A DNA stretch of 64,000 bases, taken from assembly GCA_049424145.1 (NCBI GenBank), contig JBMSSC010000001.1:16017-80016 (forward strand), in the 5' to 3' direction. The stretch is from Bdellovibrionia bacterium (lineage in GTDB: Bacteria; Bdellovibrionota; UBA1018). This document shows positions 19,798 to 40,069 of this stretch, in pieces (position 1 is the stretch's first letter; each line of letters opens with the position of its first letter). Both the position numbers and the translations under genes were made by a program. Below the pieces are notes generated by a model, which saw only the letters and a list, made by a program, of their open reading frames with translations, ran no database searches and was not told the origin of the DNA.

Positions 19798-20073
19798 GCC
19801 CTAGTGGAGTACTTGCTCATGCTTTTGGTGGCTTTTTCTGTTGTGGGAAGCCTTTCGTTTGGCTTTAAGCGGATCCTTCTGCGAATTTGGGGCGTTTATC
19901 ATAAGGAAATTTCTTCGCCCTGTCCTTCCTGCCCTCCAAACAATCCTAGTTACCGATTTTAATGAACGACGCGAGGTCAATCCATCTCGTCAAAATGGCT
20001 TCCGCCTTTCGTGTTTTTTAAAAGGGGAATGGGGATTTCTCTCTTACTCCTGAAACAAGGAGTGAGCTAGTAT

Positions 20074-22164
20074 TTGCTCTCCCGGTGTGTCATCGTTTTC
20101 GATATGACAACTAGAATAGGAATTCGCCTCCAGAAGTGGTTTCCTCTTGGTTTGTGTCTGTTTGTTTTTTTACTCGGCTTTGGGCTGAGAGGGGCCCCGG
20201 CTCACCCGGATGTCCTTTTTTCTCGAGAGCAGGAACTGGGCGTTGCATTCATTTTTCTAGGGTTCTTCCTCGGTCTGCTCTATTGGGGCAAAGCCCTTTT
20301 AGAGATCCTTCAATTGAGTCAATTGGGGTGGATCTATGGTCTAGCTTTGGGAAGTGCTGGCTGGTCTTGTATCGGGCTTCTCTTGGGATCATTAGGCTGG
20401 ATTGGGTATTCTTCTTTTTCTGCGCTGCTTTGCGGACTGTTTTTAGGGCCTCTTCTTCACTCCTATTTTTGGAGCCGATCTTGCGAGAATCAAAATCCCC
20501 CTCCGCAGCCGTTATCCGGCGCTCGAGTTTTGACTCAAGGGTTTAAAGGCATTTCTCTTGTGGAGGGTGTGATCTTTGGGCTTTTAATCTTCGTATGGAT
20601 TGGGTTCTGTTTGAATGCTTCGGGGGCTCACGGCACGAGCGATCCCTTTCTCTATCATCTTTTGGGTCCTAGGCTTTGGGTGGATGCTGGGAAGATTTAT
20701 CTTCCAGGTCCGATTCCGATTACGTTTCAAGCGTCCAGTTGGGAGATGCTGCTGGTTCTCTCTCAGATTCTTCTGGGGGCACCTGAGGGTTTTGGGCTCA
20801 TTGAGGGGCATTTGTTTTCTCAGTACCTTCATGTTGTGGTGGGCTTAGGAGGGGTGCTTGCGGTACTCTTTAAGCTCAGTCCCAAGGAAAGTGGCGTTCC
20901 TCGGTTTTGGATGGGCGTCGCCCTCTTAGGCGCTCTTCTGACTCCTGATCTTCGCGAGCTTTCGTGGTTAGGAAAAAATGATTGGGGGGTGCTCTTTTGG
21001 ATTTGCGCAGGCACGGCCCTGCTGTTGCGGCCGCCCAGTTCATCGTGGCGGCAGAAGGCTCTTGCGGCATTTCTGCTGGGTCTGGGGTGTGCGGGCAAGC
21101 CCAATTCCCTTTTTTTTGTGATTCCAGTTTTGGGATGTTTTGCCTTGCGTCCGCTTGAAGCCGATTCTCTTCGGAAGAGATTTTTTGAGCTTCTGGGCGT
21201 TGCAGGGTGGATCCTTTTGGGTGCTGCACCCATCCTGATCCGAAACTGGGCTTACACGGGGGCTCCATTGTTTCCCTTTGTTCAGCTCGGCTTGAATCCT
21301 GAGCTCGGAGGCCCACTCTCTTCATTCGCTCAGCTCACTCCCAGTCGTCTCACCGGAACATTCACGTTTTTTCAAAGCCAACTTCGATGGGTTTTAGCGG
21401 AACACTGGGTCTACACCTGGATTGTACTTGGGCCTTTGCTGGGATCTTTTTTTCGCGATCCCTTACTTCGAAAACTATCATGGATTTTGCCCATTTCTTC
21501 ACTTTGGTTTTTAGTTCTTGAAATCAATCATCAGTTTGTTCGGTGGTTGGGAGCTCCCTTGGTGCTTTCGGGTTTTTTACCCGTTCTTTTGTTGTCCGAT
21601 TTGTTGAATCGTGGATCAGGGGCGTGGAGAAAGCTCGGGTTTCAATCTGGGCTAGCCTTGGTCATGGCCCTGATTTTAACATCGCAAGTGGAGGTTAAAG
21701 GATGGTGGGCTATGCTTCATCGAGGTTCCCCCACGCACGTGATTCGCAATCCTGTGGTTCACTTGGGGGGGGACTCTAAGGCTTGGTTGCGTTTGAACGC
21801 AACGTTTGAGACCCCAATTGTGACCACGGGAGATAATCAGCTTTACTACCTCAGCTACCTTCCCGTGACGCCTCTCTCCTATGGCTTGGAGTTAAAACGG
21901 AAGCTTGAGTCTTTAAGACACTCCATTCTGATCTTTTCTCAACTCTATCAATTTGGCTATCGATACGTCTTGGATGTCATGCACTGGGACGATCAGTACT
22001 GGACGGATTATGCGTTCACGCTGGATCGGGCTATCCTCAACCTTCCTGAGGCAATCGTTTTTATGGGGCCTAGGTCAAAAGTCATCGACCTAAAAGTGCT
22101 CGTTGAATCCATGAACCAAAGCTGCGTTGGGACAAAGGGAAGTTGGATGACTCCGCCTACTTGA
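20074..22164 (+). CDS. large polytopic membrane protein with a C-terminal soluble domain (GT-C-fold-like, unassigned)
   Basis: 696 aa. About 14 predicted TM helices in the first 500 aa, then a ~180-aa hydrophilic C-terminal domain. The start may be the downstream ATG at 20104. Confidence 0.5.
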   Translation: MLSRCVIVFDMTTRIGIRLQKWFPLGLCLFVFLLGFGLRGAPAHPDVLFSREQELGVAFIFLGFFLGLLYWGKALLEILQLSQLGWIYGLALGSAGWSCIGLLLGSLGWIGYSSFSALLCGLFLGPLLHSYFWSRSCENQNPPPQPLSGARVLTQGFKGISLVEGVIFGLLIFVWIGFCLNASGAHGTSDPFLYHLLGPRLWVDAGKIYLPGPIPITFQASSWEMLLVLSQILLGAPEGFGLIEGHLFSQYLHVVVGLGGVLAVLFKLSPKESGVPRFWMGVALLGALLTPDLRELSWLGKNDWGVLFWICAGTALLLRPPSSSWRQKALAAFLLGLGCAGKPNSLFFVIPVLGCFALRPLEADSLRKRFFELLGVAGWILLGAAPILIRNWAYTGAPLFPFVQLGLNPELGGPLSSFAQLTPSRLTGTFTFFQSQLRWVLAEHWVYTWIVLGPLLGSFFRDPLLRKLSWILPISSLWFLVLEINHQFVRWLGAPLVLSGFLPVLLLSDLLNRGSGAWRKLGFQSGLALVMALILTSQVEVKGWWAMLHRGSPTHVIRNPVVHLGGDSKAWLRLNATFETPIVTTGDNQLYYLSYLPVTPLSYGLELKRKLESLRHSILIFSQLYQFGYRYVLDVMHWDDQYWTDYAFTLDRAILNLPEAIVFMGPRSKVIDLKVLVESMNQSCVGTKGSWMTPPT

Positions 22165-22171
22165 TGGGGCT

Positions 22172-22840
22172 CTAGTTCTTCCGCCGCGTTGATGTCTTCG
22201 TCTTTGCGTAAGTCAGGAAGATCTCATCCCCCAAGACGGTGCATTGTCTGAGCTTGAGGTTCAAAACCTCGCTGGGTTTAAATCCTTGGCCATCGACCAA
22301 CGAGGGAGCTGTGGCGCCGCCTACGATCTTTGGGGTGAGCGTGACATGGTACTCATCGATCAAGTTTTGGCTAGCAAAGTCCCACATGACGCCCCCTCCT
22401 CCTTCGACTAAGATTCGGGTCAGGTTCTGGGCTTTTAAGTGAGTTAAAATTTGGCGAGCCACTGGGTGTTTGGGGCCCGGTTTTTTTAGGAGCACCACCT
22501 CCGAGCTTCGAGAGAAGCGCATGAGGGTGGATTTTTCAATCCCTTCGGTGACAAAGAGGATTCGGCGAATCTTGGAGCTTTTAAAAAACGGCCAGCGCGG
22601 ATCTAAGCCTGCTAATCGAGAACTGATCAGAATATTGATGGGTTGCTTGGTCTGTCCTGAGATGACGCAGGGTTTTTGATAGACTCTCATGGTGGAGGCT
22701 CCCATCACGATGGCATCACAACGCCTTCTTAAGACTTCCATCTGTTTGAGGTCCTCTGCCGTTCCTAAGGGAAAGAAGGAGCGTTCACAGGTTGCGATTT
22801 TTCCATCCAGACTCATGGCAAGGTTTGAGAAAACAAACAT
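22172..22840 (-). CDS. RibD C-terminal-domain / dihydrofolate-reductase-family protein
   Basis: MFVFSNLAMSLDGKIA…IVMGASTM…ILVEGGGGV resembles the pyrimidine reductase (RibD_C) fold. Confidence 0.75.
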   Translation of the reverse strand: MFVFSNLAMSLDGKIATCERSFFPLGTAEDLKQMEVLRRRCDAIVMGASTMRVYQKPCVISGQTKQPINILISSRLAGLDPRWPFFKSSKIRRILFVTEGIEKSTLMRFSRSSEVVLLKKPGPKHPVARQILTHLKAQNLTRILVEGGGGVMWDFASQNLIDEYHVTLTPKIVGGATAPSLVDGQGFKPSEVLNLKLRQCTVLGDEIFLTYAKTKTSTRRKN

Positions 22841-22843
22841 GGA

Positions 22844-23485
22844 TCAACTCTCCTTGGATTGGGATGATTGAGGAGTGGGGGGGGTCTTTTTGTTCCCTAA
22901 GTACTGAAGCGCAATGAAGAAGATCTCCTTGCTTTCCTTGCGGGTGCTTTTAGGTCTTAACACTTCAATTCGGGCAAACTGGGCTCTGAGTTGCTTTCTT
23001 AAGCCTTCAAATTCGTCGCTGTGAAACAGCTTGCAGATAAAGGTGCCCTTGGGTTTTAAAAACAGTTCAGCACAGCTAAACGCTTTTTGGCAAAGCTCCA
23101 GCGAGCGAGCTTGGTCGGTGACTCGAATCCCGGTGGTTTTAGGGGCCATGTCCGAGAGCACCACATCAAAGGGGGGGCTGATGGAAGTCTGCTCAAATAA
23201 CTTCTCCAAGGAGAGTTCTCTTAGGTCGCCTTGGAAAAAATAAGCATTGGGCAAAGTCAGTTCAATGGCTTGAAGATCGACGCCCAGGAGTCGTCCTTTG
23301 GGTCCAATTCTCTCAGACGCATACTGAGACCAGGAGCCGGGTGCCGCACCTAAGTCCAGCATCTTTTGAGCGGGTTTGAAAACCTTAAAGCGCTCGTCGA
23401 TCTCTTTGAGCTTAAAGATGGAGCGGGCGACATAGTTTTCCTTCTTTGCTTGGAGAAAATAATAGTCTCTTGGATCGTACGCCAC
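22844..23485 (-). CDS. rlmE: 23S rRNA (uridine2552-2'-O)-methyltransferase RlmE/FtsJ
   Basis: N-terminal YRSRSAFKL-like SIFKLKEIDERFK. SAM motif LDLGAAPGSWSQYA. DxxxxxGDL and KxxxG motifs. Confidence 0.9.
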   Translation of the reverse strand: MAYDPRDYYFLQAKKENYVARSIFKLKEIDERFKVFKPAQKMLDLGAAPGSWSQYASERIGPKGRLLGVDLQAIELTLPNAYFFQGDLRELSLEKLFEQTSISPPFDVVLSDMAPKTTGIRVTDQARSLELCQKAFSCAELFLKPKGTFICKLFHSDEFEGLRKQLRAQFARIEVLRPKSTRKESKEIFFIALQYLGNKKTPPTPQSSQSKES

Positions 23486-26469
23486 AGTTTAAAACCTCAT
23501 TCCTGTGTTATCGCTGACTTTGCCATGCTGGGGCTTTTGAAAAGTCGCGGCATGAGACGTCCGCCCTGAAGTGCGGAAGTTTCCAATTTTTTCCTCACTA
23601 TACAGGGCAAAACAAGAAACGACTATCTGAACTTGCAAGGATCACATCGTCAAGCAATTCAGCGAGGCATTTTCACTGCATTGGAAGGGCGTTGCTTTTT
23701 GGGGCTCAATTCGTGGGTCTTTAGGTCTGGGAGTCGTGCCATGAGGTGACTGGGGAAGGTTTTGAGCCCATTTGACCTCAATCAGAGGGATTGAAGGCGT
23801 CCAGGAACGGAGTGAATCATCTTTGAAAATCGCGTGTTCAGATCCAGAGATCCAGAGATCCTGTTCGTGTGCTCTGAGAGATTCCGGTTTAAGGTCTTGT
23901 TTTTAAAAGGATGGGGCATGACTAGTTGCTTCGATCCTTGATTGATTAGCTTATTTAATATATTATTAAAATGTAACTTAATGAGCAAAACTCGCTTGAG
24001 TTTGCGTGGGTTCGATTGGGCGGAATCGGCTTTGATTTCATGGGTTTTGGTTAGGGTAAGAATCCAAGGGTTGAAGGAGCGAATTTGAGAGAGTTTTTTG
24101 AAAAAAAGCGTCAAGACCAGCCCCAAAAGAGGGTTTTACCTTGGCTCGGGTTAGTCGTGATTGGGTTGATCTGTGGGTCAATTTCCTCTCAAGCATCTTT
24201 ATTTAATGTGATGTCGTTTCTCAAAACACAATGGGTGAATACTCCGTATAAGAGGATCACGGGAGGGGCTGGTGATTCTGGAGCTAATTCCCACACCTGT
24301 GGTCTCACGTTTCAGGGGCAACTCAAGTGTTGGGGTTGGAACTCCAGTGGGCAGCTTGGACTAGGAACGGTAGGAGTCGGAGTGAGTTCCCCGACGGCTA
24401 TTGGAACGCCTTCGTTCGTTTCAGTCGCAGGGGGGTATCGCCATACGTGTGGAATTACAGCTAATCGGACTCTTCGGTGCTGGGGGTCTGATTCTTACGG
24501 TCAGGTGGGAAATGGTTCGCTGACCACCGCGGATCAAGCGTCTCCCGTGGCGATTGATTCATTAACCCCTTATGGCACTGTTGCGGCGGGAGGGTATCAC
24601 ACCTGCGGAATTACTCAGGCTGGAGATCTTAAATGTTGGGGCTGGAACAGCTCGGGACAACTCGGAAATGGAAATCCTGCTTCCGATGAGGCTTCGCCTT
24701 TCGGAATTGATTCTGGGACTTCTTACATTGAGATTACTGCGGGTTATGCTCATACCTGTGGAATTACAGGGGCTGGAGTTTTAAAATGCTGGGGCCTGAA
24801 TTCCAGTGGGCAAGTGGGAAACGGGGTAGTCGGAGGATCTTCCACATCTCCTGTGGAGATTGACTCAGGGACACCCTATATCGCCGTTTCAGCGGGAGAT
24901 GCTCATACCTGTGGGATTACCGGCGCTGGAGTGTTAAAATGCTGGGGCTCGGATTCGAACGGCAAGTTAGGAAACGGAACCTTAACGTCGGCCGACCAGC
25001 CCTCACCTGTGGTGATTGATTCGGGGACAACCTATCTTGCAGTTTCTGCTGGTGTTGAGCATACGTGTGGAATTACGGGAAGTGGAGTGCTTAAATGCTG
25101 GGGAAGTGATGCGAACGGTCAGTTAGGCAATGGGTCCACCAGTGGGAATCAGTTCTCCCCAGTGGCGACTAATTCCGGGGCAAATTATGTCGGGATTTGG
25201 TCCGGACGAAATCATACGTGTGCGATCACCAGTCGGGGGGTGCTTGAGTGCTGGGGGAGTGATGCCTCAGGCCAATTAGGAAATGGTTCAACTTTGACTT
25301 CCGATGTCCTTTCCCCAGCATCCATTGATAAGGATAGGTTTCAAAAAGGCATCTATCAAAAAACGGCCACCTCGGGGGCCTTTACTTCGTGCGGGGTGAT
25401 GAATTCGGGTGTGCTCAGGTGCTGGGGGAGTGATGCATTTAGTCAGTTGGGCAACGGAGGGACAGGCAATCAGACGATTCCTCGAATCACAAACTCTGGA
25501 GAAATTTATCGACAAGTCTCTGTGGGAGGATATGAATCCAATAGCTCCCATGCTTGTGGCATAACAGGATCCAATCAACTCAAGTGTTGGGGGAGTAATA
25601 CATCTGGGCAGGTGGGGATTGGGAACACGGCGGGTCCAGTGACGACTCCTCAATTGGTCAACGATCCGGGCACCCGGTATCGAAAAGTGAGTTTGGGCTG
25701 TTCACACACTTGCGGAATCACGACTGCAGGTCAGCTCAAGTGCTGGGGATATAATGGCTTTAGGGAGTTGGGTGGTCGAACCGGAGATTTAACGTCCCCA
25801 GGGGTCGTGGATTCGGGGAGCACATATCGAGACGTAGGAATGGGGTGTGGTTTCGGCTGTGGCATTACCACTCGTGGAGAGTTGAAATGCTGGGGGCAAA
25901 ATACCTCGGGTCAAGTGGGTAATGGAACGAGTGGTAGCTCTCAGTCTACCCCTGTGGTCATTGATTCCGGGATGACCTACCGAGCGATTTCAGGGGGGTA
26001 TAATTTCGCCTGCGGGATTGCCGCGAGCGGAACTTTGAAATGTTGGGGAAGCGATAACGCTGGACAGGTTGGGAACGGGGCAACTACAGGAAACCAACTG
26101 ACGCCTCAGCCTGTTAATGACCCAGGTACTGTTTACTCGGTGATTGCTTCAGGGTTCTACTATGCTTGCGGAATTACGGGTGTGGGAGCCTTAAAATGCT
26201 GGGGAAGTGATTCTGCAGGCCAATTAGGAAACGGCGCTGCAGTGAGTCAAGACTCTCCCATGTTAAGTGATTCGGGGACCTTATACACCGAGGTTGGATC
26301 TGCCCTGGGTTCAGCTAATTGGGGTCACAGCTGTGGAATCACGGTTGGGGGAATTCTCAGGTGCTGGGGACGCAATAACTCTGGGCAACTGGGCATCGGT
26401 AACACCGCGAATCAAACTTCCCCCGTTGATGTGGTTCGTTAAGTGAGGCTGGGTGGCGTGAGCGCGCTT
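23239..26469. repeat. tandem duplication unit 1 (3,231 bp): 5' 247 bp of rlmE, the intergenic/promoter region and the RCC1-repeat gene
   Basis: Identical to 26470..29700. I checked both boundaries directly: …ccttggaaaaaa|taagcattgg at the upstream edge and gagcgcgctt|aataagcattgg at the internal junction. All ORFs recur at a constant +3231 offset with identical translations. Confidence 0.9.
24085..26442 (+). CDS. secreted or membrane-anchored RCC1-repeat protein (14 blades, probably two 7-bladed beta-propellers), copy 1
   Basis: TTG start 5 nt after aaggag. N-terminal KR-rich segment plus a hydrophobic helix (signal peptide or anchor). Fourteen ~50-aa repeats with consensus HTCGIT-G-LKCWG-N-SGQLGNG…SP--I-SG--Y. 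Confidence 0.85.
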   Translation: MREFFEKKRQDQPQKRVLPWLGLVVIGLICGSISSQASLFNVMSFLKTQWVNTPYKRITGGAGDSGANSHTCGLTFQGQLKCWGWNSSGQLGLGTVGVGVSSPTAIGTPSFVSVAGGYRHTCGITANRTLRCWGSDSYGQVGNGSLTTADQASPVAIDSLTPYGTVAAGGYHTCGITQAGDLKCWGWNSSGQLGNGNPASDEASPFGIDSGTSYIEITAGYAHTCGITGAGVLKCWGLNSSGQVGNGVVGGSSTSPVEIDSGTPYIAVSAGDAHTCGITGAGVLKCWGSDSNGKLGNGTLTSADQPSPVVIDSGTTYLAVSAGVEHTCGITGSGVLKCWGSDANGQLGNGSTSGNQFSPVATNSGANYVGIWSGRNHTCAITSRGVLECWGSDASGQLGNGSTLTSDVLSPASIDKDRFQKGIYQKTATSGAFTSCGVMNSGVLRCWGSDAFSQLGNGGTGNQTIPRITNSGEIYRQVSVGGYESNSSHACGITGSNQLKCWGSNTSGQVGIGNTAGPVTTPQLVNDPGTRYRKVSLGCSHTCGITTAGQLKCWGYNGFRELGGRTGDLTSPGVVDSGSTYRDVGMGCGFGCGITTRGELKCWGQNTSGQVGNGTSGSSQSTPVVIDSGMTYRAISGGYNFACGIAASGTLKCWGSDNAGQVGNGATTGNQLTPQPVNDPGTVYSVIASGFYYACGITGVGALKCWGSDSAGQLGNGAAVSQDSPMLSDSGTLYTEVGSALGSANWGHSCGITVGGILRCWGRNNSGQLGIGNTANQTSPVDVVR

Positions 26470-26716
26470 AATAAGCATTGGGCAAAGTCAGTTCAATGGC
26501 TTGAAGATCGACGCCCAGGAGTCGTCCTTTGGGTCCAATTCTCTCAGACGCATACTGAGACCAGGAGCCGGGTGCCGCACCTAAGTCCAGCATCTTTTGA
26601 GCGGGTTTGAAAACCTTAAAGCGCTCGTCGATCTCTTTGAGCTTAAAGATGGAGCGGGCGACATAGTTTTCCTTCTTTGCTTGGAGAAAATAATAGTCTC
26701 TTGGATCGTACGCCAC
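26468..26716 (-). pseudogene. truncated rlmE' fragment (first 82 codons) created by the tandem duplication
   Basis: Translation is identical to RlmE residues 1-82. A TAA is generated at the duplication junction. The promoter region is retained. Confidence 0.8.
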
Positions 26717-29700
26717 AGTTTAAAACCTCATTCCTGTGTTATCGCTGACTTTGCCATGCTGGGGCTTTTGAAAAGTCGCGGCATGAGACGTCCGCCCTGA
26801 AGTGCGGAAGTTTCCAATTTTTTCCTCACTATACAGGGCAAAACAAGAAACGACTATCTGAACTTGCAAGGATCACATCGTCAAGCAATTCAGCGAGGCA
26901 TTTTCACTGCATTGGAAGGGCGTTGCTTTTTGGGGCTCAATTCGTGGGTCTTTAGGTCTGGGAGTCGTGCCATGAGGTGACTGGGGAAGGTTTTGAGCCC
27001 ATTTGACCTCAATCAGAGGGATTGAAGGCGTCCAGGAACGGAGTGAATCATCTTTGAAAATCGCGTGTTCAGATCCAGAGATCCAGAGATCCTGTTCGTG
27101 TGCTCTGAGAGATTCCGGTTTAAGGTCTTGTTTTTAAAAGGATGGGGCATGACTAGTTGCTTCGATCCTTGATTGATTAGCTTATTTAATATATTATTAA
27201 AATGTAACTTAATGAGCAAAACTCGCTTGAGTTTGCGTGGGTTCGATTGGGCGGAATCGGCTTTGATTTCATGGGTTTTGGTTAGGGTAAGAATCCAAGG
27301 GTTGAAGGAGCGAATTTGAGAGAGTTTTTTGAAAAAAAGCGTCAAGACCAGCCCCAAAAGAGGGTTTTACCTTGGCTCGGGTTAGTCGTGATTGGGTTGA
27401 TCTGTGGGTCAATTTCCTCTCAAGCATCTTTATTTAATGTGATGTCGTTTCTCAAAACACAATGGGTGAATACTCCGTATAAGAGGATCACGGGAGGGGC
27501 TGGTGATTCTGGAGCTAATTCCCACACCTGTGGTCTCACGTTTCAGGGGCAACTCAAGTGTTGGGGTTGGAACTCCAGTGGGCAGCTTGGACTAGGAACG
27601 GTAGGAGTCGGAGTGAGTTCCCCGACGGCTATTGGAACGCCTTCGTTCGTTTCAGTCGCAGGGGGGTATCGCCATACGTGTGGAATTACAGCTAATCGGA
27701 CTCTTCGGTGCTGGGGGTCTGATTCTTACGGTCAGGTGGGAAATGGTTCGCTGACCACCGCGGATCAAGCGTCTCCCGTGGCGATTGATTCATTAACCCC
27801 TTATGGCACTGTTGCGGCGGGAGGGTATCACACCTGCGGAATTACTCAGGCTGGAGATCTTAAATGTTGGGGCTGGAACAGCTCGGGACAACTCGGAAAT
27901 GGAAATCCTGCTTCCGATGAGGCTTCGCCTTTCGGAATTGATTCTGGGACTTCTTACATTGAGATTACTGCGGGTTATGCTCATACCTGTGGAATTACAG
28001 GGGCTGGAGTTTTAAAATGCTGGGGCCTGAATTCCAGTGGGCAAGTGGGAAACGGGGTAGTCGGAGGATCTTCCACATCTCCTGTGGAGATTGACTCAGG
28101 GACACCCTATATCGCCGTTTCAGCGGGAGATGCTCATACCTGTGGGATTACCGGCGCTGGAGTGTTAAAATGCTGGGGCTCGGATTCGAACGGCAAGTTA
28201 GGAAACGGAACCTTAACGTCGGCCGACCAGCCCTCACCTGTGGTGATTGATTCGGGGACAACCTATCTTGCAGTTTCTGCTGGTGTTGAGCATACGTGTG
28301 GAATTACGGGAAGTGGAGTGCTTAAATGCTGGGGAAGTGATGCGAACGGTCAGTTAGGCAATGGGTCCACCAGTGGGAATCAGTTCTCCCCAGTGGCGAC
28401 TAATTCCGGGGCAAATTATGTCGGGATTTGGTCCGGACGAAATCATACGTGTGCGATCACCAGTCGGGGGGTGCTTGAGTGCTGGGGGAGTGATGCCTCA
28501 GGCCAATTAGGAAATGGTTCAACTTTGACTTCCGATGTCCTTTCCCCAGCATCCATTGATAAGGATAGGTTTCAAAAAGGCATCTATCAAAAAACGGCCA
28601 CCTCGGGGGCCTTTACTTCGTGCGGGGTGATGAATTCGGGTGTGCTCAGGTGCTGGGGGAGTGATGCATTTAGTCAGTTGGGCAACGGAGGGACAGGCAA
28701 TCAGACGATTCCTCGAATCACAAACTCTGGAGAAATTTATCGACAAGTCTCTGTGGGAGGATATGAATCCAATAGCTCCCATGCTTGTGGCATAACAGGA
28801 TCCAATCAACTCAAGTGTTGGGGGAGTAATACATCTGGGCAGGTGGGGATTGGGAACACGGCGGGTCCAGTGACGACTCCTCAATTGGTCAACGATCCGG
28901 GCACCCGGTATCGAAAAGTGAGTTTGGGCTGTTCACACACTTGCGGAATCACGACTGCAGGTCAGCTCAAGTGCTGGGGATATAATGGCTTTAGGGAGTT
29001 GGGTGGTCGAACCGGAGATTTAACGTCCCCAGGGGTCGTGGATTCGGGGAGCACATATCGAGACGTAGGAATGGGGTGTGGTTTCGGCTGTGGCATTACC
29101 ACTCGTGGAGAGTTGAAATGCTGGGGGCAAAATACCTCGGGTCAAGTGGGTAATGGAACGAGTGGTAGCTCTCAGTCTACCCCTGTGGTCATTGATTCCG
29201 GGATGACCTACCGAGCGATTTCAGGGGGGTATAATTTCGCCTGCGGGATTGCCGCGAGCGGAACTTTGAAATGTTGGGGAAGCGATAACGCTGGACAGGT
29301 TGGGAACGGGGCAACTACAGGAAACCAACTGACGCCTCAGCCTGTTAATGACCCAGGTACTGTTTACTCGGTGATTGCTTCAGGGTTCTACTATGCTTGC
29401 GGAATTACGGGTGTGGGAGCCTTAAAATGCTGGGGAAGTGATTCTGCAGGCCAATTAGGAAACGGCGCTGCAGTGAGTCAAGACTCTCCCATGTTAAGTG
29501 ATTCGGGGACCTTATACACCGAGGTTGGATCTGCCCTGGGTTCAGCTAATTGGGGTCACAGCTGTGGAATCACGGTTGGGGGAATTCTCAGGTGCTGGGG
29601 ACGCAATAACTCTGGGCAACTGGGCATCGGTAACACCGCGAATCAAACTTCCCCCGTTGATGTGGTTCGTTAAGTGAGGCTGGGTGGCGTGAGCGCGCTT
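26470..29700. repeat. tandem duplication unit 2 (3,231 bp), identical to unit 1
   Basis: It ends …gagcgcgctt, and the unique sequence resumes with taaaatcgtc at 29701. Confidence 0.9.
27316..29673 (+). CDS. RCC1-repeat protein, copy 2 (identical to copy 1)
   Basis: 785-aa translation identical to 24085..26442. Its own copy of the upstream region is included in the repeat. Confidence 0.85.
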   Translation: MREFFEKKRQDQPQKRVLPWLGLVVIGLICGSISSQASLFNVMSFLKTQWVNTPYKRITGGAGDSGANSHTCGLTFQGQLKCWGWNSSGQLGLGTVGVGVSSPTAIGTPSFVSVAGGYRHTCGITANRTLRCWGSDSYGQVGNGSLTTADQASPVAIDSLTPYGTVAAGGYHTCGITQAGDLKCWGWNSSGQLGNGNPASDEASPFGIDSGTSYIEITAGYAHTCGITGAGVLKCWGLNSSGQVGNGVVGGSSTSPVEIDSGTPYIAVSAGDAHTCGITGAGVLKCWGSDSNGKLGNGTLTSADQPSPVVIDSGTTYLAVSAGVEHTCGITGSGVLKCWGSDANGQLGNGSTSGNQFSPVATNSGANYVGIWSGRNHTCAITSRGVLECWGSDASGQLGNGSTLTSDVLSPASIDKDRFQKGIYQKTATSGAFTSCGVMNSGVLRCWGSDAFSQLGNGGTGNQTIPRITNSGEIYRQVSVGGYESNSSHACGITGSNQLKCWGSNTSGQVGIGNTAGPVTTPQLVNDPGTRYRKVSLGCSHTCGITTAGQLKCWGYNGFRELGGRTGDLTSPGVVDSGSTYRDVGMGCGFGCGITTRGELKCWGQNTSGQVGNGTSGSSQSTPVVIDSGMTYRAISGGYNFACGIAASGTLKCWGSDNAGQVGNGATTGNQLTPQPVNDPGTVYSVIASGFYYACGITGVGALKCWGSDSAGQLGNGAAVSQDSPMLSDSGTLYTEVGSALGSANWGHSCGITVGGILRCWGRNNSGQLGIGNTANQTSPVDVVR

Positions 29701-29800
29701 TAAAATCGTCTTATTTCAGGTGTGTTCCGAGAATGGGGTGATGCTGTGTCGTTGTCGTCTCTGGGTTGATTTGCCGCTTAGGCACCTGAGGCAAGGCTCC

Positions 29801-30547
29801 CTAAACAATTCGGGCAAAAAACTTTCGAGTCTCCTCAGCCACATAGGCTTCAATGAGTTTGGCGTGAGCTGGGTTGATCCCCCGAAAAACGATTCCGACT
29901 TTGATCTTCTCTTCGGTGTCTGAGGGGTGGGATTTGGGTAGTCGCCTTAAATGCAGCACTTCACCGCAAAGGGTCAGGGTCTCGGATCGGAGGGAAATAC
30001 TCATGCCCTCGATTCGTTGGCCCACGTAAAAGGGCATGCGCTCCTGGTCTTCTGTTAAAAAGGAAAGGCCTCCTGAGCTGATGTCGTAGATCTTCTTTCG
30101 GATGACGGTGGCGGAAGCTCGGGGGTCTACAAACTCAACTCGCAGGACGTAGCCTTGAAGGATGCGAAACCGCTGGTTTTTTCGTCGCTGAGCCCGAAAC
30201 AGGCGCTTGGGAAGGGAGAACTCCAAGTGGGTGAATGAAGTGGAGATGAGCTGGGCTGGAAAAAAAAGAGTGGCTCGCTCCAAGGAGACGTTAAACAAAC
30301 AGCGATCCCCTGCGGCTTGGAGCTTGGGATAGAACTCATCTCGATTGCAATCCAAAGGAGGGGTGGTGAAGATGAGTTTCTTCAATTGGCTCAGTCCCAT
30401 GAAAGAGCAGCGTTTGGGCTCGGGGTGCTCTTGAGTCCAAATGAGGGTGGCAGCGCTAATTTTTACCGCTTCATCAAAGTACTTGATGATTTCAAGCGGG
30501 TCGGTGACTTCGGTGAGTTCATTGGAGTGGCTTTGAGCCTCAGACAA
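29801..30547 (-). CDS. YcgR-like c-di-GMP-binding protein (PilZN-like N-domain + PilZ domain)
   Basis: RxxxR motif (QRRKNQRFR, residues ~121-126) and D-x-S-x-G-G motif (DISSGGLSF). The 248-aa size matches YcgR-type proteins. It overlaps the mreB stop by 8 nt. Confidence 0.7.
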
Positions 30548-31595
30548 TGGTCACCTTTCTGAGCAGGTCCATGTCTTGAAGGGCTTTTACTGAACCACGC
30601 ACCACACAGGTTAATGGATCTTCAGCTAAGGCAACCGGGAGTCCTGTTTTTTCCTTAATCAAGATGTCGAGGTTGGCTAGGAGTGCTCCTCCCCCGGCTA
30701 AGATAATCCCATTATCGACAATATCGGCCGCCAGTTCTGGAGGAGTTCTCTCTAAGGCCGTTTTAATCGTGTCCACCACGGCCGACACAGGCTCAGCAAG
30801 AGCATCTCGGATTTCCTCCGAGTTGACTTCAATGGTTTTAGGTGCCCCACTGATTAGGTCTCGTCCTTTGACTTCGTAGGTTTTCTCCTCTTCAAACGGA
30901 TAGGCGCAGCCAATGGAGAGCTTAATCTGCTCAGCCGTTCGCTCTCCGATCAGAAGTGAGTATTTTCTCTTAATGTAGTTCACGATGGCGTCATCAAACT
31001 TATCGCCTGCGACTCGAACGGATTTTGAGTAAACGATCCCGCCTAGGGAAATCACGGCCACTTCCGTGGTTCCGCCGCCGATATCCACAATCATGTTTCC
31101 GCTCGGTTCTCGAATGGGAAGTCCTGCTCCCAGCGCTGCAGCCATGGGTTCCTCAATGAGGTAGACTTCGCGGGCCCCTGCGGATTGAGCGGATTCTTTC
31201 ACCGCTCGTTTTTCCACCTGAGTGATTCCAAAGGGAATGCAGATGATGATCCTGGGACGAATAAAGGTTCTTCGTTCACTGGATTTATGGATGAAGTACT
31301 TGAGCATCGATTGGGTGACTTCAAAGTCGGCGATCACTCCATCTTTCAGAGGGCGAACGGCTTGGATGGACCCTGGGGTTCGCCCGAGCATGTCTTTGGC
31401 CTCTTTGCCAACGGCAAGTACGCGGGTTTGGCCCCGGGAGTTTCGGTGGATGGCAACCACGGAGGGCTCGTTGATGATGATGCCACGATCCCTTGCGTAA
31501 ACCAGCGTATTTGCGGTTCCTAAGTCAATTGCCAAGTCGTTTGCAAAAAAATCTAACATTTTCTTTAGCATGAATGATTCACCACTTATCACCAC
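30540..31595 (-). CDS. mreB: rod-shape-determining actin homologue MreB
   Basis: The N-terminal region [13 protein letters not shown] resembles MreB, and the protein has an actin/Hsp70-like ATPase fold. Confidence 0.9.
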
Positions 31596-32449
31596 TTATA
31601 ATGACGAATGTGCTCGCCTCGCTCACTGATCTCACTCATCGCCTTCATTCCGACTTCTAAGTGCAGATCGGTGAACTTTTGGAACACCGCTTTTGCCGAC
31701 TTCTGAGTTTTAATTCCGCCTCGTCTTAAGGGAAGGTCCGAAACGAGAAGTAAGGCTCCAATGGGAACTTTACTGGCGAACCCGGCAACAAAGAGCGTGG
31801 CTGATTCCATCTCAATGGCCAAAGCGCGTTCTTCATACAACTGAGCCTTAAATCGTTGATCGAATTCCCAAAAACGATAATCAGTAGTATGAATGACACC
31901 GGTGCGATAATCCAAGTCTTTTTCGACTAAAATCTGAGAAACGAATTTTTGAATTTTAAACGTGGGTAAGGCAGGAACCTGAGGTGGCATGAAGTGCCGG
32001 GAAGCCCCTTCATCGCGGATGGCTGCCGTGGGGATGATGAAGTCCCCGACTTTCAATGAGCGATGCAGGCCTCCACACATTCCTAAGAGCAGGACTGCTG
32101 TGGGGTCTAAGGTGGCCAAAAGCTCGATGATCAAGGCTGCTGTGGGAGAGCCCATGGAAAAGTTGACGATCGACACTCCTGCTTTCTTGCTATGCACCGC
32201 ACCCATGATGGACCCCTGGGTTCGGGACTCTCCTGAAAGTTGAGTGAATCGATTCAGATAGTAGTCAAAATTAGTGAGAATGATCTGCTTTTGAAAGCTT
32301 TCCGGTGGACTACCCGTATAACGCGCCAGCATATCCCGAGCAATTTTATGCTTGTGGGCATTGGTGTAGATTCGATTATTATTTTGAATAATGAATGGAT
32401 TAATAGAAAAATCTTCTGACTTCTTTATTTTACTTTTTTTCTGTTGCAC
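31589..32449 (-). CDS. PNP/UDP-phosphorylase-family (MTA/AMP-nucleosidase-like) protein
   Basis: PNP_UDP_1-like core (…LLGMCGGL…, [12 protein letters not shown]) with a ~70-aa N-terminal extension. It overlaps the mreB start by 7 nt. Confidence 0.6.
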
Positions 32450-34868: not shown

Positions 34869-35237
34869 GTGGTTTGGGGTGGGCTCTTGCGCTTCCGTGA
34901 TGAGACGGAGATTGCGCCATTTTTGGGTTCAGATAGAATAAAACTCATGGTGAGCAGAATTCTTCCAATCTGGGTGGTCTTTGCTTTAGTGGTTTTTGCA
35001 ATTGGGAGCGTGTGGATTCGACTCCATATCATTCGAACCACCTATGCCATCAATGAGATGCATAGAAAAATGGAGCAAACCAAGCAAGATTCAGAACTGT
35101 TGCAAGTGAAGCTCTCGAGTCTGAAGTCTCCGAAGCATTTAGAAGCCTTGGCTCGGCGGAAGTTTGGTCTTCTGCAGCCGCGAATGGATCAGGTCATTCG
35201 CATGACCCAGTCGAAAGAAGCCCTTCATGGAACCTAA
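34869..35237 (+). CDS. ftsL: FtsL-like division protein (single TM + coiled coil)
   Basis: Small bitopic protein in the canonical slot between rsmH and ftsI. TM helix ILPIWVVFALVVFAIGSVWIRL followed by heptad-like sequence. The start may be the ATG at 34938. Confidence 0.5.
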   Translation: MVWGGLLRFRDETEIAPFLGSDRIKLMVSRILPIWVVFALVVFAIGSVWIRLHIIRTTYAINEMHRKMEQTKQDSELLQVKLSSLKSPKHLEALARRKFGLLQPRMDQVIRMTQSKEALHGT

Positions 35238-37353
35238 GGTGGAGGCTCAGATTTTCCCTGATGATTCGATCCGAAAACGCTTGGTGGTCACCTTAGCCAT
35301 TGGGGCGGTCTTCACCTGCTTGATCCTCGGGCGTGCTATTTTCATTCAGCTGATGAAACATCCCCGGTTAGAAGCCATGGCTTCTCGTCAGTACCATGCT
35401 CAATCCTTGGTTCAGCCCCGTCGAGGCGTCATTTTCGATCGAAACGGGGAGCGTCTTGCCGTGAGTGTGGATTCCTATAGTTTAGCAGCCAATCCTACTA
35501 AGATCCGAAAGCGCTGGATCTTAGCGCCCCTTTTAGCCAAGGCACTTCGCTCGAGCTCCTCACGATTGATGGAGAAGCTCAGTGAGCCTCGGGAGTTTGT
35601 TTGGATCAAACGGCAGTTGAGCGAGGCGGATCTCAGGGCGTTTAAAAAACTCTCACGCGTTGAATCGAATGATGATCTGCTCGAAGGCTTGTGGTTAGTC
35701 AAGGAAAGTAAGCGAGTTTACCCCCATGCCTCCCTTGCCGCGCATGTTTTAGGCGACGTAAATGTGGATTCAGATGGATTAGAAGGAGTTGAGCTTTGGC
35801 AAAATGAGCGATTGAAGGGAAAAATCCTCAGTGTTTCGGCCATTAAAGATGCCTTGGGTCGGCCAACTTTCATTGATGCAAAAGCCGCATCTCAACTCAC
35901 CGATGGCCAAAGTGTGAGTCTGACCTTGGACTCGGTTCTTCAGTATGAAATTGAGAGACTCCTCTCTGAGGCAGTTCGAAAAACGGGAGCCAAAGGGGGA
36001 TCCGTGATGGTGATGGATGCCCAATCCGGTGACCTGTTGGCTTTGGCCAATGAGCCCACGTTTGATCCCAATCAAAAGGGAATTCCCCTGGATCGTCGCC
36101 GAAACCGCGTGTTGACCGATGGCTACGAGCCGGGATCCACGATGAAACCCTTACTTCTTGCTGCGGCCCTCTCAAGTGGAATGAAGCTCAGTGATGAGTT
36201 GTGGGGAGAAAAAGGGAGTTTCATTTTACAAAAACGGAGGATTTCAGAAGCCGAGGCGCATGAAAAATTTGAGTGGATCAGCTTAAAAAAAATCATCCAA
36301 GTCTCCAGCAATGTGGGAGCTGCAAAGTTGGCCTTAAAAGTCGGAGCAGAGCGTTACTTGCAGGTTTTAAGAGCCTTTGGCTTGGGCGCAAAAACCGGAT
36401 CAGGGTTTCCGGGTGAGATTTCAGGCCGAATCCCGCCCAAAAAAGATTGGCAGCCTTTAACGCTAGCAAACATTGGCTTTGGTCAGGGCCTGCTGGTGAC
36501 CCCGATGCAGATGCTGAAGGCCTATGCCGTGTTTGCCAATGGGGGCTTTTTAGTGGAGCCCCATTTGATCCAAGCAGAGGCTCAGTCCAAGGATGAAAAA
36601 CCAGGGGCTCTTGCGCTGTCCCCTTTAAAAAAGCAGGTTCTCTCGCCTCAGGTCACTCAAGCTGTGGTGGAGGCCTTGGAGTCCGTCACTCAAAGCGGAG
36701 GCACGGCACAAAAAGCGGCAATGCCTGGCTACCGAATTGCGGGAAAGACAGGAACCGCTCAGGTGGTCGATCCTCACTCCGGGAAATACTCCCATGATCA
36801 ATACGTGTCCTCGTTCATTGGTTTTCCGGTGGGTTTGGACTCTTCGCTGGTGATCTTCACAGCCTTAAATGAGCCCAAAGGCGTCTACTATGCATCCGAA
36901 ACAGCAGTGCCCTTGTTTAAAGAGGTGCTCAGTGCGCTCATTCATCGCTACAGCTTGCCTGCGGAGCACGAGCCTGAGCTGTCGGTGAAGCCCGTGAAGT
37001 TGGCCAGTGCCTCTCTGTCTGCTCTGCGTTCATCCGGGGGGATGACCCAGGATGAACTTCATTGGACCCAAGCCTCGGTGCAGCAGGCGTCGTTGACCAA
37101 GGGGGACTCGCTGAGCTTAGGCGGATCTCTGCCTCGAGTCGTTCCCGTGCCCCAGACTGAGGACGTCAAACTGAGTCAATGGGTCATGCCCGATCTCCAA
37201 GGGCTTTCACCCAAAGAGGTGCTGGAAGTGCTTCAGGGCTATCCCTTTGCCCTGGAGATGAAGGGGATGGGGATGGTTGCTTCACAGACGCCGATGGCCG
37301 GTCAGCGGCTCTCCAAAAGAAGTCGAGTTCGACTGGTGTTTTCAGAACCTTGA
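35227..37353 (+). CDS. ftsI: peptidoglycan D,D-transpeptidase FtsI (PBP3) with a C-terminal PASTA domain
   Basis: PBP dimerisation and transpeptidase domains (SxxK STMKP, SSN, KTGTA). The last ~65 aa (VMPDLQGLSPKEVLEVLQG…) look like a PASTA domain. Confidence 0.85.
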   Translation: MEPKVEAQIFPDDSIRKRLVVTLAIGAVFTCLILGRAIFIQLMKHPRLEAMASRQYHAQSLVQPRRGVIFDRNGERLAVSVDSYSLAANPTKIRKRWILAPLLAKALRSSSSRLMEKLSEPREFVWIKRQLSEADLRAFKKLSRVESNDDLLEGLWLVKESKRVYPHASLAAHVLGDVNVDSDGLEGVELWQNERLKGKILSVSAIKDALGRPTFIDAKAASQLTDGQSVSLTLDSVLQYEIERLLSEAVRKTGAKGGSVMVMDAQSGDLLALANEPTFDPNQKGIPLDRRRNRVLTDGYEPGSTMKPLLLAAALSSGMKLSDELWGEKGSFILQKRRISEAEAHEKFEWISLKKIIQVSSNVGAAKLALKVGAERYLQVLRAFGLGAKTGSGFPGEISGRIPPKKDWQPLTLANIGFGQGLLVTPMQMLKAYAVFANGGFLVEPHLIQAEAQSKDEKPGALALSPLKKQVLSPQVTQAVVEALESVTQSGGTAQKAAMPGYRIAGKTGTAQVVDPHSGKYSHDQYVSSFIGFPVGLDSSLVIFTALNEPKGVYYASETAVPLFKEVLSALIHRYSLPAEHEPELSVKPVKLASASLSALRSSGGMTQDELHWTQASVQQASLTKGDSLSLGGSLPRVVPVPQTEDVKLSQWVMPDLQGLSPKEVLEVLQGYPFALEMKGMGMVASQTPMAGQRLSKRSRVRLVFSEP

Positions 37354-37403
37354 TGCTAGGCCTAAGAGGAGCGGTAGTCCTCTTGCCCGTCTCAAGGAGA
37401 TTT

Positions 37404-38915
37404 ATGCTGAAACCTCAATTGACTCAACTCACGTTAGTTCAACTCCTGGCGCTCTTACCGAAAGAAATCCTTTCTCCTCAAGATCCCAGCAGGCAAGCCC
37501 TTTTGCATGGCTCTGCTCAGGTCACAGGCGTGACCTCTGATTCAAGAGAAGTGAAGCCAGGCAGTGTGTTTGTGGCCATTTGTGGGGGCACTCAGGATGG
37601 ACATCAATTCATCGATTTAGCTTTAGAAAAAGGCGCCGTTTTTGTGGTCGGTGAGCAACCCATGCCCTCTTCGCAGCTCAAGGGAGTCTATCTCCAGGTT
37701 TCCGATAGTAGGGAGGCCTTAGCAGCCTTGGCCGCTCAATTTTTTCATCATCCCTCCGATGGGCTTTTGGTGCTCGGAGTCACCGGAACGAGTGGAAAAA
37801 CCACCACCACTTTTATTCTGGAGTCCATTTTAGCGGCAGCGGGGCATCGTGTGGGAATCATTGGAACCATTCACTTTCGTGTGGGCAACCAAGTCCTTCC
37901 TTCCACGCACACCACCCCGGGCGCAGCAGAGCTTCAAGGTCTTTTGGCGGAGATGAAAAACGCAGGCTGCACCGCCGTGGTGATGGAGGTGTCCTCTCAT
38001 GCTTTAAAGCAAAAACGAGTGGCATCCGTGGCTTTTGATGGCGTGGTGTTTACTAATCTCTCGCCTGAGCACTTGGATTTTCATCCTGACTTGGAGGATT
38101 ACTTTCAGTCCAAGGCCCTTTTGTTCACTGAGTGCATGAAGTTTTCTCAGTCTCGGGGGAAAAAGCCTGTCATGGCCATCAATTCAGAAGATGAACACGG
38201 CCATCGCCTCCTTCGCACTCTTGCCGCTCCCCACAGTGCGTTTTTACCTCAGCACGCTTTGCAGGTGAGCCCCAGTGGGATCTCAGGGCAGCTGGGTCCT
38301 GTGAAAGTGGAGTCGTCGTTTACGGGGCAATTTAATGGGTCCAACCTATCAGCTGCCGTGACGCTTGCTTTGGCCCTCCAAATCTCCATCCCCTGCATTG
38401 AGCGGGGAATCCGAGACCTCAAAGGGGTCCCTGGGCGTTTAGAGCGAGTCCCCAATGCTCGGGATATTCATGTTTGGGTGGATTATGCTCATAAGCCCGA
38501 TGCTTTAGAGAAGGTGCTCAAAACGTTATCTCTTTTGCGGGGGGGAAACCGCCTCATCACGGTTTTTGGGTGTGGCGGGGATCGAGACCGAAAAAAACGG
38601 CCGCTCATGGGGAGGATCGCAGCTGAAAATTCGGATTGGGTCTTTGTGACTTCGGATAACCCTCGAACCGAAGATCCTCAGGCCATTATGGATGAGATTT
38701 TGGCGGGAATGACGGGGCATTCGCATGTGAGTGTTGAGGTGGATCGAAAAACGGCCATTTTAAAAGCCGCTTGCTTGGCCCGACCCGGAGATCTAGTGGT
38801 GATTGCAGGAAAAGGCCATGAAACCTATCAAATCATGGGCACAACACGGGTGCACTTTGATGATCGAGAGGTGGCAGCCTGGGCCTTTGAGCAAAAAGAG
38901 CCAACCCAGGGCTGA
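37404..38915 (+). CDS. murE: UDP-N-acetylmuramoyl-L-alanyl-D-glutamate--2,6-diaminopimelate ligase
   Basis: Mur ligase P-loop GVTGTSGKTTT. DNPR motif (SDNPRTEDP) typical of MurE. I chose the ATG at 37404 rather than the track start at 37179, which overlaps ftsI. Confidence 0.9.
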   Translation: MLKPQLTQLTLVQLLALLPKEILSPQDPSRQALLHGSAQVTGVTSDSREVKPGSVFVAICGGTQDGHQFIDLALEKGAVFVVGEQPMPSSQLKGVYLQVSDSREALAALAAQFFHHPSDGLLVLGVTGTSGKTTTTFILESILAAAGHRVGIIGTIHFRVGNQVLPSTHTTPGAAELQGLLAEMKNAGCTAVVMEVSSHALKQKRVASVAFDGVVFTNLSPEHLDFHPDLEDYFQSKALLFTECMKFSQSRGKKPVMAINSEDEHGHRLLRTLAAPHSAFLPQHALQVSPSGISGQLGPVKVESSFTGQFNGSNLSAAVTLALALQISIPCIERGIRDLKGVPGRLERVPNARDIHVWVDYAHKPDALEKVLKTLSLLRGGNRLITVFGCGGDRDRKKRPLMGRIAAENSDWVFVTSDNPRTEDPQAIMDEILAGMTGHSHVSVEVDRKTAILKAACLARPGDLVVIAGKGHETYQIMGTTRVHFDDREVAAWAFEQKEPTQG

Positions 38916-38992: not shown

Positions 38993-40069
38993 ATGCTCTT
39001 TCAATTTCTCTATCCGCTTCATGCGAAGTACTCAGTGCTTCATGTGTTTAAGTACATCACCTTTCGGAGTTTCGGTGCCAGCATCACGAGTCTTTTGATC
39101 TGCATGCTCATGGGCCCCTCCTTCATTCGCTTCCTTCAGAGAAAGCAAATGGGGCAGTCCATTCGGGATGACGGACCCAAAAGCCATCTCTCGAAAAAAG
39201 GTACACCCACGATGGGAGGGGGGTTAATTCTCTTTGGGATCGTTCTGCCGACTCTGCTTTGGTCGGATCTGGGAAATAAGAGCGTATGGATTGCTCTAGT
39301 GACCACGATTTTGTTTGGTCTCATTGGGTATGTTGACGATTACCGAAAAGTGATTCAAAAAAACTCCAAGGGCCTCTCCAGTCGTCAGAAGATTGTGAGT
39401 CAAACGCTGGTGGCCTTGGTGGCCGCTTACGTGATTTACGTCACTCGCGATACGCCCCCGGTTTTAAAGTTCCCGTTCTTTAAGGATTGGTCTTTTTATC
39501 TGGGTCTATTTTTTGTGCCCTTTGCTACGTTCGTGATCGTGGGTGCTTCCAATGCGGTCAACCTAACCGATGGTCTCGATGGCCTTGCTGTGGGTCCCAC
39601 CATCACCACTTCAGTCACGTTTCTCGTGCTCGCTTATTGCGCAGGGCATGTGAAGATTGCCGAGTACCTTCAAATTCCCTATGTGCCCGGGGCAGGGGAG
39701 TTAGCCGTATTCTGTGGCTCAGTTGCGGCTTCGTGCTAGGGCATTTTATGGATTAATACCTATCCTGCTCAAGTTTTTATGGGGGATGTGGGGTCGTTGG
39801 CTTTAGGTGCAGCCTTGGCTGTCGTTGCCGTGATCACAAAAAATGAAATCTTGCTTGCACTTTGTGGGGGAATTTTCGTAATTGAAGCCCTCTCGGTGAT
39901 GGCACAGGTGACGTCTTTTAAGATGACAGGGAAAAGGGTCTTAAGAATGGCGCCCATTCATCATCATTTTGAGCTAAAAGGGTGGGCTGAGCCTAAAATT
40001 ATTGTGAGATTTTGGATCATCTCGATTTTATTGGCCCTATTTACTCTCTCGACTTTGAAATTAAGGTAG
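38993..40069 (+). CDS. mraY: phospho-N-acetylmuramoyl-pentapeptide transferase MraY, interrupted by an in-frame TAG at 39737-39739 (possible pseudogene or base-call error)
   Basis: Track ORFs 38993..39739 and 39779..40069 are in the same frame. Codon-by-codon reading gives …[35 protein letters not shown]…, which is co-linear with the E. coli MraY motif …[26 protein letters not shown]…. The stop sits at the conserved Leu. Confidence 0.7.

Follow-up and report, generated by a model that had tools for sequence, protein, structure and literature searches.

A predicted exported protein with two RCC1-like propellers, present as two identical tandem gene copies in a Bdellovibrionia contig

RCC1-like repeats have been described as a 'pangenomic' superfamily (Stevens & Paoli 2008, as cited in 10.1101/2023.11.21.568195) and RCC1/BLIP-II is a large, mostly bacterial lineage of propellers (PMC9218822). 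The eukaryotic members UVR8, RPGR, the RCC1-like domains (RLDs) of HERC1 and HERC2, and RCC1 itself share one seven-bladed fold and are single cytoplasmic or nuclear propellers with partners that include Ran, COP1, and PDE6D. Among bacterial members, BLIP-II from Streptomyces is a secreted, non-catalytic, seven-bladed beta-lactamase inhibitor that acts by tight binding only (PMC9218822). The Legionella and Coxiella effectors LegG1/PieG and PpgA (Swart et al. 2020, as cited in 10.1101/2023.11.21.568195) are RCC1-repeat proteins whose site of action is outside the cytoplasm of the producing cell; they are Icm/Dot type IV substrates that target Ran in the eukaryotic host. RCC1-repeat proteins annotated as 'RTX toxin' have been reported from Bdellovibrio (PMC5941755). 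Here we describe a gene for an RCC1-repeat protein of 785 amino acids (aa), which we call the RCC1 protein, in a 64,000-nucleotide (nt) stretch of DNA from a Bdellovibrionia bacterium (contig JBMSSC010000001.1 of assembly GCA_049424145.1, positions 16,017 to 80,016, forward strand). We refer to this whole stretch as the window and count positions from its first nucleotide.

Our reading is that the gene encodes a non-catalytic exported protein in which a Sec-type signal is followed by two seven-bladed RCC1-like propellers joined by a flexible linker of about 10 residues. We give this reading a probability of roughly 0.6. The gene, its second copy, and the predicted parts of the product are the following, where pLDDT is the predicted local distance difference test score of the structural model:

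24085..26442, + strand: RCC1-repeat gene, copy 1, 785 aa (P0001)
24085..24198, + strand: predicted Sec signal peptide or signal anchor, residues 1-38, by inspection
24247..25323, + strand: predicted propeller 1, residues 55-413, repeats 1-7, 28 strands (3 + 6x4 + 1)
25324..25353, + strand: predicted inter-propeller linker, residues 414-423, pLDDT <50 at 416-423
25354..26430, + strand: predicted propeller 2, residues 424-782, repeats 8-14, 28 strands (3 + 6x4 + 1)
27316..29673, + strand: RCC1-repeat gene, copy 2, 100% identical to copy 1

The protein contains exactly 14 tandem units of 44-57 aa, each with a motif of the HTCGIT...KCWG...GQLGNG type. Pfam searches matched it to RCC1_2 (PF13540) in 14 stretches (2e-88, 288.6 bits against a cut-off of 22), to RCC1 (PF00415) in 10 stretches (5.5e-67, 222.6 bits, cut-off 21.7), and to the whole-domain model WD40_RLD (PF25390; 347.2 bits, cut-off 150). 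An earlier reading of this DNA made from the letters and their translations (the sequence-only reading) had named the repeat as RCC1/BLIP-II-type, and these matches bear it out. No further domain was found by the Pfam and NCBIfam searches, and NCBIfam returned no meaningful family for either this protein or a 696-aa membrane protein encoded nearby. An AlphaFold2 model built on an alignment of 36 sequences (A1) had a mean pLDDT of 88.5 and a predicted template modelling (TM) score of 0.64, with pLDDT below 50 at residues 1-51 and 416-423 only. The DSSP string of the model holds two equal blocks of 28 strands, and the low-confidence residues 416-423 fall exactly between repeats 7 and 8. The order of 3 + 6x4 + 1 strands is the 'velcro' pattern expected of a closed seven-bladed propeller whose first blade takes its last strand from the C-terminus. 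Foldseek comparison with the PDB gave UVR8 as the best match (TM-score 0.90 when normalized to the target, root-mean-square deviation 1.6-2.0 Å over ~376 columns, 29-30% identity), followed by RPGR, the RLDs of HERC1/HERC2, and RCC1, all complete seven-bladed RCC1-type propellers; across this group the TM-score reached 0.90 with a deviation of ~1.7 Å. Normalized to the query, the TM-score was ~0.43, so that each match covers about half of the model. A sequence search of the PDB returned UVR8 (4e-38), HERC2 (4e-27), RPGR (2e-26), and RCC1 (1.5e-19). As the sequence-only reading had supposed from the number of blades, the model almost certainly describes two seven-bladed RCC1-like propellers.

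Two cysteines per blade, one in HTC and one in KCWG (C72/C82 to C750/C760), are present in all 14 blades and conserved in 36 of 36 aligned homologues. By the strand register of the model they lie diagonally and not directly opposite each other, and they may be packing residues, not disulfides.

The open reading frame (ORF) at 24085-26442 (+) is a real coding gene. Its TTG start is preceded by a GAAGGAG Shine-Dalgarno sequence at 24073-24079 (+) with a spacer of 5 nt, and the closest in-frame stop upstream of the TTG is at 24052. The sequence-only reading had reported a 785-aa frame starting at TTG after aaggag, and we recovered the same coordinates. The exact protein is present at NCBI under two consecutive accessions, MFZ9594486.1 and MFZ9594487.1, both on one contig of 96,266 bp from a Bdellovibrionia metagenome-assembled genome (MAG). 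Both are named 'RCC1 domain-containing protein' and the annotation uses the 785-aa form.

The N-terminus reads, in order, MREFFEKKRQDQPQKR (a basic n-region with a net charge of +3), VLPWLGLVVIGLICGSI (a 17-aa h-region), and SSQA/SLF (the c-region), where the slash marks the putative cleavage site; by inspection, S-Q-A/S fits the -3/-1 rule for signal peptidase I. The arrangement has the look of a Sec signal peptide or, equally possibly, of a signal anchor, and agrees with the basic stretch and hydrophobic helix that had been noted from the sequence. An N-terminal hydrophobic segment is also found in 95 of 120 homologues. In the G-L-I-C30 motif the residues at -1 and -3 are I and G, a departure from the canonical lipobox [LVI][ASTVI][GAS]C; a lipobox-like motif is present in 33 of the 120 homologues, unlike the RCC1 protein here. 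The protein ends three residues past propeller 2 and has no C-terminal sorting domain. Both lepB and lgt lie within the window. From our reading of the N-terminus and by analogy with the homologues, we consider export of the protein likely. It would cross the inner membrane in a Sec-dependent manner and then either be cleaved after SQA38 or be retained as an inner-membrane anchor.

Once exported, the protein would act beyond the cytoplasm, whether in the periplasm, at the cell envelope, or in the medium. Its two rigid propellers, hinged by the flexible linker, could form a binding platform for a protein or glycan ligand, much as other RCC1-like domains bind through their propeller faces. The odds that the role is purely one of binding are about even. 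BLIP-II offers the best functional analogy, for the mechanism only and with no claim of family membership. It is a single propeller with shorter blades. BLIP-II gave no PDB sequence match at E <= 1e-5 and was not among the 50 Foldseek matches listed. Whereas the eukaryotic RLDs are single propellers, the protein here is predicted to carry a tandem pair behind a Sec-type signal and is encoded by a bacterium. A function as a guanine nucleotide exchange factor (GEF) for Ran is implausible given the bacterial organism and the export signal, and nothing suggests a GEF or photoreceptor role. LegG1/PieG and PpgA also differ from this protein, which has a Sec-type signal, is encoded in a Bdellovibrionia genome, and has no secretion-system context in the window. 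The 'RTX toxin'-annotated proteins of Bdellovibrio belong to the same bacterial group and repeat family. One homologue (P0023) comes from strain SKB1291214, the strain studied in PMC5941755; it is 42% identical, 1,270 aa long, and has an added Ig-like (immunoglobulin-like) domain.

Bacterial RCC1-repeat proteins had been called uncommon in the sequence-only reading. This proved wrong: of 8,000 candidates scored, 7,915 matched at E <= 1e-10, and they came from many phyla of bacteria and archaea. These bacterial and archaeal proteins share the consensus HTCALT..G..KCWG.N..GQLG.G, the module of 14 repeats, and an N-terminal export signal, and homologues of 725-810 aa consisting of a signal and 14 blades are frequent. 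Most relatives from Bdellovibrionota are longer (1,100-1,360 aa) and have extra Ig-like, Big, or other domains that the RCC1 protein here does not have. No assigned function turned up in the literature searches made here for signal-plus-double-propeller proteins of Bdellovibrionota, Myxococcota, Actinomycetota, and other phyla, and the identification of a ligand for so abundant a family would be useful. The RCC1 protein is thus an ordinary member of a very large known family that NCBI has already annotated. The perfect duplication of its gene is the only unusual feature and is tentative until reads confirm it.

This duplication consists of exactly two units of 3,231 bp, with 23239-26469 matching 26470-29700 base for base (100% identity). 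The units and the genes around them are:

23239..26469, no strand: duplication unit 1, running from the 5' 247 nt of rlmE through the 599-nt leader and the RCC1 gene to 27 nt of 3' flank
26470..29700, no strand: duplication unit 2, identical to unit 1
22844..23485, - strand: rlmE/ftsJ, intact; the left duplication boundary (23239) lies inside it, and in relatives it directly follows pilZ
23486..24084 (copy at 26717-27315), no strand: intergenic leader of 599 nt upstream of the RCC1 gene, part of the lineage-specific insert
26468..26716, - strand: truncated rlmE 5' fragment of 82 codons, with its TAA stop supplied by the junction
29801..30547, - strand: PilZ-domain gene at the right flank of the insertion, 26 nt from rlmE in relatives

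The junction between the units reads ...GCGCGCTT/AATAAGC..., or at greater length ...GGCGTGAGCGCGCTT/AATAAGCATTGGGC..., and shows no microhomology. rlmE is intact at copy 1, whereas copy 2 carries only the 82-codon stub. The sequence-only reading had spoken of gene amplification, and in the assembled sequence this is real. Either an illegitimate duplication took place very recently or the repeat is an artefact of assembly; we lean toward a real duplication. Tandem RCC1 paralogues, diverged from each other, occur in about a quarter of the homologue loci; examples, each on one strand, are five tandem diverged RCC1 segments in a Bradymonadia MAG (L019, 10010-18784) and two of ~2.5 kb each in an Actinomycetes MAG (L031, 7580-13226). 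Tandem duplication seems to be a recurrent route by which the family expands.

The RCC1 gene and its leader form a lineage-specific insertion that separates pilZ from rlmE and lies on the strand opposite to these two genes. We draw this from relatives in which pilZ and rlmE are adjacent with a gap of 26 nt and in which the RCC1 protein has no match. Three related contigs carry mreB-pilZ and then, after a gap of 26 nt, another gene. This is ftsJ/rlmE in L062 and L063, where ribD_C comes next, and beyond it L062 has redoxin, PAP2, and amidohydrolase genes; the third contig ends within the gene after pilZ, for which Pfam gave no call. tblastn comparison of L062 and L063 with the window confirmed orthology for MreB (99%), RlmE (~70%), RibD_C (60-63%), and PilZ (40-42%), and found no match in these two contigs to the RCC1 protein or the 696-aa membrane protein. 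The gene for the latter is a second insertion, between ribD_C and ahpC. A mobile element as the source was rejected, there being no direct or inverted flanking repeats of at least 9 nt. Around the RCC1 homologues no synteny was seen except for an MreB gene ~8 kb from a 34%-identical RCC1 gene in one locus (L058).

The 599-nt leader is unusually long. It has an AT-rich stretch with a sigma-70-like TTGATT-17-TATTAT at 23938-23966 and must also hold the promoter for rlmE-ribD_C, which in relatives directly follow mreB-pilZ. No Rfam family matched at gathering thresholds anywhere in the window, the leader included, no convincing small ORF was found within the leader, and no terminator-like site was seen near the ends of the RCC1 gene.

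The blades themselves are diverged. The sequence-only reading had held that neighbouring blades are more than 80% identical in DNA, yet gapped whole-blade identities are 45-74%, with blades 4 and 5 the highest pair (74%). Identity of at least 80% in 60-nt windows is confined to one core of these two blades (~24727-24810 versus 24880-24963; peak 87%, and 65 of 84 positions over 84 nt). The example given there, 24765-24840 versus 24895-24970, is out of register, with an offset of 130 nt against a true period of 153 nt, and its identity is 28% (63% at the correct offset). The longest exact repeat inside the gene is 18 nt, the longest in register between blades 4 and 5 is 16 nt, and Tandem Repeats Finder found no array in 20000-32000. 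In the protein, median blade identity is 0.49 over 91 pairs, 5 of which exceed 0.6; blades 3-6 are the most similar (median 0.62), a borderline case of 'locally repetitive'. Recently amplified ('highly repetitive') propellers have a median blade identity above 60% (Pereira & Lupas 2022, PMC9218822), and the median of the RCC1 protein lies below this. In an alignment of 36 homologues from many phyla, the register of 14 blades is kept column for column. Fourteen is also the most common motif count (34 of the 120 best homologues), a second group having 20-24 motifs, and the RCC1 spans of homologue loci tend to measure ~2.1-2.5 kb. The nearest other homologue (1,281 aa) is only 46% identical and thus there is no orthologue with which to compare blade number. 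From the short exact repeats, the divergence of the blades, the conserved register, and the prevalence of 14, we conclude that the 14-blade module is old and stable and not a length-variable array. The blades are too diverged to recombine efficiently with one another.

The protein has 16 N-x-S/T sequons in 11 of its 14 blades, where shuffled sequences have 8.8 +/- 2.6 (p ~0.007, with the caveat that blades are not independent samples). The sequence-only reading had seen a sequon in almost every blade at the same position; this is true in part only, for the sequons are spread over several positions. Counted from the cysteine of HTC, they stand at +14 in 6 blades, at +21 in 5, and at +26 in 2, with 3 sequons elsewhere. 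The main sites are the N of WGxN-S-S-GQ (6 blades) and GNG-S/T (5 blades). Among the homologues, which include Actinomycetota, Chloroflexota, Myxococcota, archaea, and other groups, the ratio of observed to expected sequons has a median of 1.40 and exceeds 1 in 82%; the RCC1 protein, at 1.86, ranks 17th of 120. N occupies the WGxN position in 881 motif instances, with S the commonest residue two positions on (210/881), and in 163 of 332 homologue cases the residue after GQLGNG is T or S. An acidic residue at -2 (D/E-x-N-x-S/T) is found in one of the 16 sequons only (ESNSS, residue 484), and a scan of the 47 window ORFs with 200 aa or more turned up no STT3/PglB, so that the protein does not resemble a PglB-type N-glycoprotein. 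Because the excess is family-wide and at consensus positions, the N-x-S/T motifs are best read as by-products of the WGxNxxGQLGxG consensus, not as glycosylation signals. Three membrane proteins in the window have the character of GT-C glycosyltransferases:

20074-22164, + strand: polytopic membrane protein of 696 aa with a sub-threshold match to PMT_2 (GT-C; E 0.005, 17.5 bits versus 26.1)
51619-53061, + strand: GT-C-type membrane glycosyltransferase (PMT, 40 bits)
62376-63770, + strand: GT-C-type membrane glycosyltransferase (GT87, 53 bits)

Several points weigh against our reading of the RCC1 gene as a duplicated gene for an exported double-propeller protein. There is no ligand, partner, or operon context that speaks to function, and the flanking rlmE and pilZ belong to a housekeeping block on the opposite strand. 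Export was judged by inspection and by analogy with homologues, and the h-region of 17 residues is a borderline case that would suit either a cleaved signal or a membrane anchor. Foldseek leaves the aligned half of the model unspecified, so the closed seven-bladed form of the second half is predicted from strand count and pLDDT. The duplication may have arisen in the assembly, and no independent assembly with this sequence was found. The contig is also not free of errors, since the essential gene mraY (38993-40069, +) has an in-frame TAG at 39737-39739 with intact MraY sequence on both sides in the same frame. A sequencing error, a population variant, or a pseudogene would probably account for this TAG; recoding of TAG was considered and rejected, as TAG ends 14 of 42 confident genes.

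An assembly artefact, in which a loop in the de Bruijn graph was traversed twice or contigs were mis-joined and the genome has one copy, is the strongest rival to a real duplication, although we consider it the less probable of the two. The perfect identity over 3,231 bp, the zero microhomology at the junction, the origin of the contig from a MAG, and the mraY stop, which points to at least one error or variant on the same contig, all fit an artefact. Against this, an assembly can take a novel junction only from reads, and some molecules in the sample therefore probably have it. Moreover, both copies are annotated in the deposited record, the 64-kb window holds no other long repeat, and the tandem paralogues common in homologue loci indicate that such duplications occur in this family. 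JGI metagenome contigs scanned for the 50 nt at the 3' end of the RCC1 gene gave no match. A different form of variability, also raised in the sequence-only reading, is a contingency locus in which recombination between similar adjacent blades alters blade number. The similarity of blades 3-6, the 87% DNA identity in one 60-nt core of blades 4/5, and the known amplification of RCC1/BLIP-II-lineage propellers from single blades (PMC9218822) would favour it. We nevertheless consider it highly improbable, as no array was detected by Tandem Repeats Finder, median blade identity is under 60%, and the 14-blade register is kept across 36 diverse homologues. Efficient RecA recombination in E. coli has a minimal processing segment of ~23-27 bp of perfect homology, and the exact repeats of 18 nt (16 nt in register) are shorter than this. 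If real, the 3.2-kb units are the only good recombination substrate here, and gene dosage could vary through them and only through them; blade number could not.

Two further alternatives concern the protein. The sequence-only reading had itself pointed to the in-frame ATG at 24211 (codon 43), from which a cytoplasmic protein would be translated without the hydrophobic segment ever being made. TTG is rare as a start codon, which speaks for the ATG. No Shine-Dalgarno sequence lies ahead of 24211, however, while GAAGGAG stands 5 nt before the TTG; the codons that precede the ATG spell out a textbook n/h/c signal, the NCBI annotation is of the 785-aa form, and hydrophobic leaders are seen at the N-termini of 95 of 120 homologues. 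We therefore favour the TTG and regard the internal start as very doubtful. Glycosylation, suggested as a possibility in the sequence-only reading, would make this a glycoprotein with N-glycosylated N-x-S/T sites or with Ser/Thr O-glycosylated by a nearby GT-C membrane glycosyltransferase. Consistent with this, sequons exceed the expected number, the protein is likely exported and rich in S/T, three GT-C-like proteins are encoded in the window, and the gene for the 696-aa protein, which like the RCC1 gene is a lineage-specific insertion, is only 2 kb away. However, the sequon enrichment recurs across phyla at consensus positions, the bacterial extended form accounts for one of 16 sequons, and no STT3/PglB was found among the window ORFs scanned. 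PMT-type enzymes modify Ser/Thr or lipids, not Asn, and homologues of the 696-aa protein lack an RCC1 neighbour in 5 contexts, with an Arn-type cluster in two of them (L068/L069). A glycoprotein is thus improbable, though somewhat less so than the internal start.

Returning to a duplicated gene for an exported double-propeller protein, a real duplication would double gene dosage and could be expanded or collapsed by homologous recombination between the 3.2-kb units. One could go further and suppose ongoing copy-number variation, in which a genome of the predatory lineage Bdellovibrionia tunes, through RecA, the dosage of a recently acquired, exported double-propeller binding protein for prey or envelope recognition; we consider this unlikely. 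If it were so, amplification within the conserved mreB-pilZ-rlmE operon would also remodel transcription of the housekeeping block. The locus is a clean case of an accessory gene inserted in a conserved operon and then duplicated with zero divergence. If confirmed, the duplication would show how tandem arrays of RCC1 paralogues begin.

The 696-aa protein has nine homologues, mostly unannotated. In L068 and L069 its homologue is clustered with genes for a UDP-glucose dehydrogenase, a GT2 glycosyltransferase, a methyltransferase, and a DegT protein. The resemblance of this cluster to an Arn-type arrangement suggests an ArnT-like lipid or glycan glycosyltransferase. A functional link between the 696-aa protein and the RCC1 gene was considered and rejected, as the 5 homologue contexts have no RCC1 gene. 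The closest homologue of the RCC1 protein (P0002) also has a 696-aa neighbour, but it was rejected as the counterpart of the window ORF since the two are unrelated by BLASTP and the match in length is coincidental.

The window as a whole is core chromosome, with lgt, lepB, priA, lptF/G, def, and fmt, and a division and cell wall (dcw) cluster containing mraW, ftsI, murE, mraY, murD, ftsW, murG, murC, and murB, with ftsQ and ftsZ further along. Also present are mreB, a gene for a transpeptidase like penicillin-binding protein 2, recR, and dnaX. Each of two adjacent subtilases (Peptidase_S8), at 54021-55439 (+) and 55578-57020 (+), has a fervidolysin-like N-terminal prodomain, and the pair resembles the outcome of an older tandem duplication of secreted proteases. 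In the dcw cluster, the ORFs for the ftsI-like gene (35227-37353) and murE (37179-38915) overlap by 175 nt as listed, and the true start of murE probably lies downstream of its first ATG.

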